From IMG/VR virus record IMGVR_UViG_2939521961_000017: a stretch of 61,958 nucleotides of DNA. One strand, 5' to 3'. The stretch comes from a virus. Lineage: Duplodnaviria > Heunggongvirae > Uroviricota > Caudoviricetes. Position numbers: made by a program. Shown here piece after piece: positions 27,001-30,000 of this stretch. Every line of letters starts with the position of its first letter. Positions within the stretch are counted from its first letter, which is position 1.

Positions 27001-30000
27001 TCAAGATTAAAGAAGATAAGCGTAAGGCTGCGAGAGGTGAATAATGTCGCCGTCATTACGCAAGGCTGTTGCAGCTGCTATTGGTGGTGGGGCTGTTGCC
27101 ATAGCGTCTGTGCTCATCACTGGTCCAGGTGGTAACGATGGTCTGGAAGGTGTCAGCTACATACCATACAAAGATATCGTTGGCGTATGGACTGTATGTC
27201 ACGGACACACCGGAAAAGACATCATGCCCGGTAAAACGTATACCGAAGCAGAATGCAAAGCCCTCCTGAATAAAGACCTTGCCACGGTCGCCAGACAAAT
27301 TAACCCGTACATCAACGTCGATATACCGGAAACAACGCGCGGCGCTCTTTACTCGTTCGTTTACAACGTGGGCGCTGGCAATTTCAGAACATCGACGCTT
27401 CTTCGCAAAATAAACCAGGGCGATATCAAAGGCGCATGTGATCAGCTACGGCGCTGGACATACGCTGGCGGTAAGCAATGGAAAGGGCTGATGACTCGCC
27501 GCGAGATTGAGCGTGAAGTCTGTTTGTGGGGGCAACAATGAGCAGGGTAACCGTTATTATCTCCGCTCTGGTTATCTGCATTATCGCCTGCCAGTCATGG
27601 GCTGTTAATCATTACCGTGATAACGCCATTACCTACAAAGCGCAACGCGATAAAAAAGCCAGTGAGCTGAAGCTGGCGAACGTGACAATTACTGATATGC
27701 AGGTACGCCAGCGTGATGTCGCTGCACTTGATGCCAGATACTCGAGGGAATTAGCCGATGCGAGAGCTGAAAATGAAACTCTGCGTGCTGATGTTGCCGC
27801 TGGTCGTAAGCGCCTGCGCATCAACGCCAACTGTCCAGGCTCCTTGCGTAAAGCCCCCATCACCTCCGGCGTGGGTAATGCAACCGGTCCCCGACTGGCA
27901 GAAGCCGCTGAACGGGATTATTTCATCCTCAGAGAACGGCTGATGGCAATGCAGAAGCAACTGGAAGGAGCACAGGAATATATCCGTACCCAGTGTATAC
28001 CGTGATGTTTTGTTATGAATATGTTACTGGTAACGTTAAGGTAATTTAACAAAGAGTCAGTTCCGGACTTTATAGTGTGCTCAGTTCATGGCCAAAAACG
28101 ATTTCTGTGATAAATATTTTGAATATTATTTACAGGTAAATGGAGTGGGGCGCATGGATAGAAATATTACAATAGAGTATGAAGTATATGCCCGTATTGT
28201 ATGGGCAGAGAAGGCAAAAACACGGTAATTCCGTGTGTTGCCATGATACCTGATTGGCAGAATAGTTGTTTGGTTTTGAGTATATAGTCAGCGTTTTTTG
28301 TTCAGTAATTGCCCCCTCAAAAAATAATAAAATAAGGTGATTATTTTTGTTTATTATTTAGTTTTTTTTGTGTGTTGTTTTATTGTTTTTGCGTGGTTTG
28401 TTTTTTATTGTTATTTCATTAAGGGAAGGTAAATTCAGGATGGCAGTCTGTAGATAATCGGAGGTCACTTATGCTACATGATCACGTGGCAGAATGTCTG
28501 GAGAAAAAAGGACTGTACCGGAGAGCAGCTGAACGATGGGCAAAAGTGATGGTACAGCTAAGTGATGACCAGAAAAGAAAAGTGGCGGCACAGAAACGAG
28601 CAGAGTGTTTGCGTAAGGCGCGCCGGACTCCGGTTTCACCGGTGAACCTGACCGAAATAAAACAAGCGGTCAACAGACTACATTCTGAGTTGGGAATGGG
28701 ATTTGAAGAGCGGCGGGTATTCCGACGATATAAAGGGACAGGAGAACAGAATACGTCCGGAAACGCGCGGTCAAAAAAATGCTAAAAAATATCTGAGAGA
28801 GTTATTGCCTGTTACCATAAGAAAAAGCGACTTTAGTGGTCGCTTTTTGTGTCATATATAAGTCGTTTAAGTAAACCTGTCTGAACAGGTGCTCTGGTCG
28901 TGTTTGTCTTTGTTGGGTACAAATTGAGAATATTTTTCATTAATTAATCTTCTTCTGCAGGCTTCAATAACCCACGCTGAAAAATTACCTGAACCTTTCT
29001 GGTCAAGAGCGATGTTAATTTGTTCAATCATCTGGTTTGGAAATCGGATGTTGCGGGTTGTTGTTCTGCGGGGCCGGTTTTTCGATGACATTTTCTTTCC
29101 TCTGGTGACAAGCTATATGGCGAGGATTTTACATGGCTGTGCTTCGTACGTTACCGGGCAGAATCAAAACTCTGAACACCCGGCGGGTGAATGTCCTGAA
29201 GGGTGAACAGCGTCGTGTCAGTGGCAGTGCACGTGTTTCCCTCAAGCGTCATATCTGGCTCAGGGATGCCGGGCAGTGCTGTCTCTGTGGTCGTGTGGTT
29301 GACCTCTGTGACAGTGAACTCGATCACCGAATTGCACTTCAGTTCGGTGGTGGTAATGAGGAGACGAATCTCTGGACGCTCTGTACCGAATGCCATCGAC
29401 AAAAGTCTGCTCGTGAAGTGGCGGGTGGTATGCCGGACCCGACGCTGCCGGAGGTGTCCGGAGGTCATGGCAGGGCAGACGATATCATCGGACTGTGACC
29501 CGCCCCGGGGGGGGGGGATCATCCGGCGAAAAAAACGATCGCCCCGGACACCGCCCCCCGTCTCATGCAGAGAAAAAATTCCTGTTTCAGGCCAGTTAAC
29601 ATGTTAACTGGCTGCCCGGGCATTTTTTCGGTTTTTATCTTTATTATTCAGTTTGTTGTGCGAAAAAAATGTTAACTGGCTTTTTCAGCAAATGTTAACC
29701 AGGCAGCAGTTAACATTTGCGGCATGAGACGCCGGGAAAAATGGGCTGAACCATACCCGGCTGAGTGCGTTATGGACCCGGGAGGAGGCTGTGCTGACAA
29801 CGCAAAAACGAAAATTTGCGCTGGCGCTCATGTCCGGGAAAAACAAAACAGCGTCAGCCATTGCCGCCGGTTATTCGGCGAAGACCGCCAGGGTTAAAGG
29901 CTCGCAGCTGGCAAAAGATCCGGAGGTGCTTGCGTTTATAGCCCGTAAACAATGCGAGACGGTGGAGGTGGATGAGGTTCCTGTTTACCGGCAGAAAAAA

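Follow-up and report, generated by a model that had tools for sequence, protein, structure and literature searches.

Kala et al. (2014) reportedly described the cohesive-end (cos) site of phage HK97 together with its HNH endonuclease, gp74. Here we consider the segment between an HNH endonuclease gene and the terminase genes of an Escherichia coli prophage, contained in the 62-kb IMG/VR virus record IMGVR_UViG_2939521961_000017 (hereafter the window, in whose positions all coordinates are given), and propose that positions 29499-29790 probably constitute the cos site of an HK97-type, HNH-assisted packaging module belonging to an E. coli lambdoid prophage of the Pankowvirus/Stx-phage type. Among described systems, the HK97 cos site goes with the gp74 HNH endonuclease (PMC9410871; PMC11331095), and the HK97 small terminase subunit, TerS, has its binding site, a G plus A-tract, 15-29 bp downstream of the nick (PMC11331095). 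Phage SfI has a mapped 10-nt cohesive end, TGCCCGCCCC (PMC3636060), and the Xanthomonas phages Xp10 and Xop411 an experimentally mapped 9-nt 3' overhang, GGACAGTCT (PMC2248197), whilst lambda cos is composed of cosQ, cosN and cosB, of which cosQ is the termination subsite (PMC4669245). The relatives with mapped ends used here are Xp10, HK97 and SfI, to which we add the Burkholderia phage Bcep176 with ends inferred from its database record; Xp10/Xop411 and Bcep176 are the closest relatives of the window site for which ends are defined.

The flanking genes are those of the HK97-type class. The order HNH endonuclease, intergenic site, TerS and large terminase subunit (TerL) is shared, as judged from open reading frames (ORFs) and Pfam assignments, with HK97, SfV, FSL SP-016 and Bcep176. 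The HNH gene (29133-29498, plus strand, TGA stop at 29496-29498; PF01844, E = 7e-7) occupies the position of HK97 gp74 as a packaging accessory nuclease; its product is 35% identical to the SfV HNH protein, and the counterpart gene is annotated as an HNH endonuclease in RefSeq relatives. TerS (29791-30354, plus strand, GTG start) is of the Terminase_2 type, matching PF03592 over its N-terminal part only (E = 1.5e-8, passing the Pfam threshold), with weak, sub-threshold matches to the DNA-binding domains of SF6 and SPP1 in a search of solved structures in the PDB (E 0.2-0.8). TerL (30351-32012, plus strand; PF03354 and PF20441) belongs to the clade that goes with HNH endonucleases and 3'-overhang cos sites, and is 58% identical to that of Bcep176, 48% to that of Xp10 and 22-24% to those of SfV and HK97.

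Compared with HK97 itself, the window has the same gene order and TerL Pfam families, a G-run similarly placed (G9 in HK97, ending 42 nt before the top-strand nick), GAC ahead of a C-rich 10-nt 3' overhang, which in the window is a predicted one, and, no more than ~30 bp downstream of the nick, an A/T tract that in HK97 is bound by TerS. It differs in that TerL is only ~24% identical over part of its length, HNH likeness is undetectable by BLASTP, TerS is of another family (Terminase_2), the DNA sites are not linked by nhmmer, and the nick-to-TerS interval is 229 nt, with five GTTAAC sites, as against ~50 nt in HK97. Gene order, TerL clade and DNA homology to mapped ends all agree with the class of HK97-type 3'-overhang cos sites, and the window site is a well-supported member of that family rather than a new kind of element. 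Its identification as a cos site draws on anatomy, conservation, co-variation and homology to sites with mapped ends, from which the exact nicks, the pairing of proteins with subsites and the role of the G-run are inferred.

Following the HNH stop, the sequence reads CCCGCCCC, then exactly eleven G (G11, 29507-29517), which begin 8 nt past the stop and end 273 nt before the TerS start, and then, in order, ATCATCCGGCG, an A7 tract, CGATCGCCCC, GGACACCGCCCCCCGT (29546-29561) and CTCATGCAGAGAAAAAATTCC (29562-29582). The C-rich stretch is CCCCGGACACCGCCCCCCG at 29542-29560, and a GTTAAC cluster occupies 29591-29720. All three elements, and their position 5' of TerS, had been picked out in an earlier note made from the sequence alone, and are confirmed here. 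That note took the region for cos-like terminase/HNH recognition elements, a view which the evidence below upholds in so far as the segment appears to be the cos region of an HNH-terminase module; it placed no cut, however, and the evidence puts the cut in the C-rich stretch.

Two known layouts bear on this placement. In SfV the 10-mer TGCCCGCCCC follows CCGGAC and has a G-rich block 31 nt upstream of it, and the HK97 record ends in ..ATGAC CGCCGCCAAA, 42 nt after its G9 run. These layouts suggest the C-rich stretch of the window, which also follows CCGGAC, and not the sequence beside the G-run, as the site of cutting. An alternative closer to the earlier note would put the cut at GACCCGCCCC (29497-29506), a stretch that overlaps the HNH stop and adjoins the 5' side of the G-run, with the G-run as the first bases of the left end or as a spacer. 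We regard this as improbable: although GACCCGCCCC agrees with 8 of the 10 bases of the mapped SfI overhang, and a genome starting at the G-run would carry G22 and the A7 tract at the distance from its end at which HK97 carries the G and T-tract of its TerS site, the G-rich block of SfV and HK97 stands 41-42 nt upstream of the mapped end and not at it. Moreover, what precedes the G-run is the variable C-terminus of HNH, unconserved in the family, and the invariants that flank the ends of Bcep176 and the mapped ends of Xp10 occur downstream, at 29546-29573.

To place the cut within the C-rich stretch, we relied on a family of related sites. A TerL-based retrieval from one-genome-per-species contigs yielded 80 loci (TerL 55-84% identical) spanning many proteobacterial genera, including Paraburkholderia, Pseudomonas, Variovorax, Neisseria, Citrobacter and Morganella, and in ~45 of these a G6-G10 run occurs 420-770 nt upstream of TerL and is followed by recognisably similar sequence. 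A site profile built from 38 loci and run with nhmmer against 85 upstream regions matched 75, and one match spanned the physical ends of Xp10 once these were joined. Of the 10 regions missed, most belonged to loci whose upstream sequence was too short, and HK97 and SfV were likewise missed. Across 65 distinct aligned sites, A-14, A-12, C-11 and C-10 on the left and C+1, C+3, A+4, A+10, G+11 and A+12 on the right are near-invariant, whilst the 10-mer between them is variable, which is as expected for nick-site recognition. The right flank is followed by a 6-7 nt A/T tract (A-rich in 33 sites, T-rich in 32) and then, in the 65 sites, by CCCC. The Xp10 left end begins CCCATTCGCAGAAAAA, and either end of the Bcep176 record has CGCACGTTCC, the surrounding sequence being CTAGAC/CGCACGTTCC/CTCACGCGCAGAAAA (right flank CTCAC). 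Both phages have the same nick-flank consensus as the window (..GAC C.. / C.CA..GCAGA, followed by an A/T tract), and in both a G-rich block stands 43-45 nt upstream; they differ in having a G-run of only G5 and another overhang sequence, and Xp10 further in having TerS and TerL ~1.4 kb from cos and no GTTAAC array. In Bcep176 TTGTTAATGG occurs once, where TerS starts.

The window carries every family invariant and, over 62 kb, shows the full pattern only once, which points to a top-strand nick at 29561/29562 and an overhang at 29552-29561. We thus predict a 10-nt 3'-protruding cohesive end (cosN), CGCCCCCCGT, on alignment to Bcep176 and Xp10 and with a tolerance of 2 nt in either direction. 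On its left GGACAC (29546-29551), the 5' flank of the predicted bottom-strand nick, holds the invariants A-14, A-12 and C-11 (frequencies 0.89-0.97 in the 65 sites) and does not vary in E. coli relatives; on its right CTCATGCAGAGAAAAAATTCC (29562-29582), the 3' flank of the predicted top-strand nick, holds C+1, C+3, A+4, A+10 and A+12, then the A-tract. A first placement at 29550-29559, made by the 'GAC/N10' rule of HK97 and SfI, was moved after alignment to the closer Bcep176 and Xp10.

The site is widespread. An 801-bp segment around it is 95-100% identical to many Stx1a-, Stx2a- and Stx2c-converting phages, and to BP-4795, 2851 and phi330 (genus Pankowvirus), and matches were found in 1255 of 5426 complete E. 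coli genomes, a genome carrying 2 copies at the median and 8 at most. None of the database records found ends at the site, the Stx-phage matches all being prophage-derived or arbitrarily linearised; likewise the records of vB_Pae_CF53a and vB_PR2a start near TerS at arbitrary points. Among E. coli relatives, positions 29554/5, 29560 and 29566, in or adjoining the predicted overhang, are polymorphic, whilst the flanks GGACACCG and T/CTCA are invariant. The C6 run at 29554-29559 is C5 in four sequences and base 29560 is G or C, so that the predicted cohesive ends would differ between co-circulating phages. This packaging module, found in roughly one in four complete E. coli genomes and frequently in multiple copies, is carried by Stx1a, Stx2a and Stx2c phages, yet we found no cos-site definition for it in the searchable literature; the predicted cut makes phage ends, prophage boundaries and cos-dependent transduction, including helper packaging of defective prophages like the frameshifted copy in the window, directly checkable.

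The G-run on the plus strand stands in the position of lambda cosQ. A run of at least five G precedes the nick in 60 of 68 anchored sites, and in 53 of the 60 the top-strand nick is predicted 41-46 nt from its 3' edge; individual distances are 44 nt in the window, 43 in Bcep176, 45 in Xp10, 42 in HK97 and 41 in SfV. Over the 12 nt that end with the run G content averages 72%, and T follows in 71% of sites. The bias is one of strand and place: the 80 loci (510 kb) contain 62 runs of at least six G against 14 of at least six C, with ~40 of the G-runs at the single cos position, and the window contains no run of eight or more G or C other than G11. In HK97 (39.7 kb) there are two runs of at least six G and none of six or more C, one of the two being the G9 at 39682-39690, 42 nt from the right end; the other, at 7619-7626, lies in a tail gene pair annotated with a -1 frameshift. 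Since its 3' edge is held at 41-46 nt in dozens of distant relatives and in HK97, the G-run, judged on these comparisons, is a conserved, strand-specific and positioned part of the predicted cos site, and the earlier suggestion that it might serve as a variable spacer does not fit. Such positional conservation across distant phages does not appear in the papers that our literature search covered.

Length is another matter. The earlier note had called the tract length prone to slipped-strand changes, and the tract does vary among relatives: in 35 E. coli-type sequences we counted G7 (7), G8 (11), G9 (8), G10 (4), G11 (3), G12 (1) and G13 (1), and sequences with flanks identical to those of the window range from G8 to G11. 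The tract varies far more rapidly than the sequence around it, though homopolymer assembly error may contribute. As the distance that is conserved runs from the 3' edge, slippage would extend the tract towards the HNH stop with no effect on its spacing to the nick. Between G-run and nick flank, the interval 29518-29545 (plus strand; family consensus after the G-run T(g)..AAA) holds an A7 tract at 29529-29535 that is also polymorphic in length, A6-A8 in relatives. A long homopolymer that takes lengths from 7 to 13 in near-identical relatives might also be read as a contingency (phase-variation) switch, turning a gene on or off by its length, but we consider this very improbable. Following the HNH stop and ~270 nt before the TerS start, G11 is in no coding frame and not at a promoter spacer, with no promoter-like hexamers around it; the sole ORF that crosses it is antisense to HNH, and shorter G-runs conserved at the same place in relatives point to a role at the DNA level.

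Could the conserved G-run, then, have a general function? We offer as a speculation, and one we think unlikely, that HNH-assisted cos sites with 3' overhangs generally possess a third, so far undescribed subsite in the form of a G-run set ~42 bp upstream of the top-strand nick, in HK97 as well as in prophages of Pseudomonas, Burkholderia and Neisseria. Its target would be the translocating motor or the HNH nuclease, on which it might work as an A-form-prone brake or a docking site, for instance, and so trigger termination cleavage; in E. coli Stx-type prophages it would have grown into a tract of G7 to G13, liable to slippage, whose length would tune the packaging efficiency of each co-resident prophage, defective ones included. 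The need for the G-run at -42, and the reading by each TerS family of its own motif, are questions open to the established HK97 in vitro system.

Other observations on the G-run are recorded here. A functional inverted repeat between G-run and C-run was considered and rejected, as the complementarity is not kept in the family. In the PPompW prophage LC567822.1 an insertion sequence (IS), ISEc20 of the IS110 family (L148 1146-2604), sits inside the G-run as CTTTCGGGGGGG-IS-GGGGGATCATCC; upstream of it the HNH and lysis genes are gone, tRNA genes and Q being present instead, and the same base, window position 29513, is the breakpoint in seven or more PPompW-type records. Insertion sequences may favour the G-run as a target, or it may be a point of recombination.

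Downstream of the predicted nick lies the GTTAAC cluster, with hexamers at 29595, 29603, 29671, 29694 and 29709, all inside 120 bp; eight more occur in the rest of the 62 kb, and none of 200,000 random placements put 5 of 13 sites within 120 bp. The first two belong to a perfect 22-bp palindrome, GCCAGTTAACATGTTAACTGGC (29591-29612), which consists of two inverted copies of TGTTAACTGGC, putative TerS sites 1 and 2. The earlier note had this palindrome among several centred on GTTAAC: it is indeed perfect, and the five hexamers do cluster, but it is centred on CATG and holds two GTTAAC. An AT-rich spacer (29613-29669; 34% G+C, with T6, T5 and A7 tracts) separates it from three further sites at 29670-29720, namely TGTTAACTGGC at 29670-80, TGTTAACCAGGC at 29693-704 and GCAGTTAACA at 29705-15. 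The last two sites are contained in a perfect 12-nt inverted repeat with a 9-nt spacer, GCAAATGTTAAC/GTTAACATTTGC (29688-29699/29709-20; 29688-29720 overall). Folded as single-stranded DNA, 29580-29725 gives z = -4.7 against shuffles. Just before TerS, at 29722-29736, there is also an inverted 15-nt copy (13/15, CGTCTCATGC exact) of the predicted nick flank 29554-29568, 153 nt downstream of it; relatives that alter the forward copy leave the inverted one unaltered, and the latter may be due to chance.

The GTTAAC motifs behave like recognition sites for TerS, with whose type they co-vary across 64 loci that share the TerL/nick core. Loci with a type A TerS (MALT.KKR.., the Terminase_2 type of the window, whose N-terminus MLTTQKRKF fits it) have GTTAA before the start codon in 43 of 45 cases and AATCA in 2; loci with a type B TerS (MAGVKGRSGG..) have AATCA, in up to four copies, in 15 of 19 and GTTAA in 1. 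In the type B loci L069, L075, L080, L088 and L126 there are 2-4 direct repeats of (G)AAATCAAA between nick +25 and +70, before the TerS start, which look like a second family of TerS-specific sites, parallel to the GTTAAC array. Furthermore, in 33 distinct E. coli-type sequences 30 of 30 core positions are invariant whilst 50 of the 199 other nick-to-TerS positions vary (P ~2e-4, columns being treated as independent).

The array itself appears to be a local expansion. In most type A loci TGTTAA-N5-TTAACA surrounds the ATG and the nick-to-start distance is 38-53 nt, against 229 nt in the window, whose 22-bp palindrome aligns to the TerS start region of relatives that lack the expansion. In the Salmonella phage FSL SP-016, G8..GGACACCGCCCCCC..CAGAAAAAAT is kept at 78% identity, a ~190-bp block is absent, and the TerS ATG aligns where the palindrome has ATGTTAAC. 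The family unit TTTCAG-N-GTTAAC occurs twice in the window (29584-29600 and 29682-29699), and AACATGTTAACTGGCT recurs 68 nt later. A duplicated unit and a relative without the block suggest expansion of one ancestral site, and the ~190-bp block looks like a duplication-derived product of it; when sought in plasmids as a possible mobile element, the block turned up in seven E. coli records, never outside this phage context.

These same features support a different account, in which the cluster is no packaging signal but a set of operators or mRNA hairpins controlling TerS and the late genes, or a local duplication without function, TerS recognition being confined to the A-tract near the nick as in HK97. 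The unit is clearly duplicated, the block is strongly self-complementary, FSL SP-016 lacks it whilst having a very similar TerS, and in relatives the motif stands in the Shine-Dalgarno-to-ATG interval of TerS, as TGTTAA-N5-TTAACA around the start codon. We think this account unlikely, though it deserves more weight than the two alternatives discussed above. Scans for sigma-70 promoters and intrinsic terminators were at chance level (one weak terminator-like site, fewer than in shuffles), Rfam returned no match at E <= 1, and no structured RNA or intrinsic terminator could be recognised; the GTTAAC cores are invariant and their flanks variable; and the type B TerS has its own repeated motif at the same place, as expected of TerS-specific sites. 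Multiple sites of mixed orientation around a bendable spacer are seen in the SPP1 pac site. This arrangement is also the known pattern of lambda cosB (PMC4669245). The most economical reading is that the GTTAAC array probably comprises cosB-like, putative TerS sites, with expression control or neutral duplication as possible alternatives.

Taken together, these elements allow a mechanism to be proposed. TerL and the HNH endonuclease would nick the C-rich stretch at 29561/29562 on the top strand and 29551/29552 on the bottom strand, each within 2 nt, leaving the 10-nt 3' overhang CGCCCCCCGT. The nuclease/terminase recognition core would be GGACAC on the left and CTCA..GCAGA plus A-tract on the right, going with the TerL/HNH clade. 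The G-run, its 3' edge 44 nt upstream of the top-strand nick, would form a third conserved subsite at the last-packaged end, in the place of lambda cosQ, where it most likely aids the translocating terminase/HNH complex in recognising, or pausing at, the downstream cos; as only its 3' edge would be positioned, slippage between G7 and G13 would be tolerated. The GTTAAC motifs downstream of the nick would be binding sites for the Terminase_2-type TerS, equivalent to cosB, an ancestral site beside the TerS start having been multiplied in E. coli phages by the ~190-bp duplication-derived insert to give five mixed-orientation sites around an AT-rich, probably bent, spacer.

The parallel with lambda lies in this tripartite logic, with one element upstream at the end packaged last, a nick site whose flanks are conserved and whose interior varies, and, downstream and near the TerS gene, an array of TerS sites. 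Lambda differs in its 12-nt 5' overhang, its unrelated TerL and TerS and its lack of an HNH endonuclease; the window site lacks the lambda-type cosN-like GGGCGGCGACCT (no match within 2 mismatches), and 29496-29795 contains no match within 1 mismatch to the IHF consensus WATCAANNNNTTR. The likeness to lambda is accordingly a functional analogy only, and that of the G-run to cosQ positional only. A further parallel may be drawn with herpesvirus pac1 (PMC13595911), a T-rich element with G-rich flanks at a fixed distance from which cleavage occurs, much as the G-run keeps a fixed distance from the terminase cut, although hosts and proteins are different and the likeness is known from a review description only.

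Several points weigh against the interpretation of 29499-29790 as a cos site with the anatomy given here. The nick was placed by alignment to phages with 22-58% identity in TerL, the Bcep176 and Xp10 rule differs by 2 nt from the HK97 and SfI rule, and the Bcep176 ends come from a database record and not from a paper, a literature search on that phage having yielded no usable end data. The nhmmer family profile did not link HK97 or SfV, their likeness in layout being judged by eye, and we found in the searchable literature no paper mapping the virion ends of Pankowvirus-type phages (BP-4795, 2851, phi330). Homopolymer assembly error may account for some of the differences in G-run length. The association of GTTAA with TerS could be simple linkage, the motif lying in the spacer between Shine-Dalgarno sequence and ATG and partly overlapping conserved Leu-Thr codons, and FSL SP-016 and L064 have GTAAAC, not GTTAAC, in the non-coding copy. 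Finally, a head gene is frameshifted in the window prophage copy, so the site may go unused in cis.

The frameshift concerns the prohead protease-major capsid fusion gene (32076-34012), in which, compared with phage 2851, a 1-nt deletion near 32200 (GAGGGCGCGG to GAGGGGCGG) splits the gene into ORFs at 32076-32258 and 32270-34012. The window copy probably cannot make its own heads, in which case its cos would be usable only with a helper. Between the lysis cassette and the HNH gene are a PerC-family transcriptional activator gene (28471-28785, plus strand; 104 aa, Pfam E = 4e-44), whose product we take to resemble the pch virulence regulators of enterohaemorrhagic E. coli, and a gene of the DUF3950 (YlcI/YnfO) family on the minus strand (28867-29091). 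In the phi330 record PV189401.1 (L001 1552-2022) a hypothetical-protein ORF is annotated antisense to HNH, HNH itself being unannotated; the same antisense ORF in the window is 29151-29522, reading through the G-run, and the phi330 annotation is probably an error.

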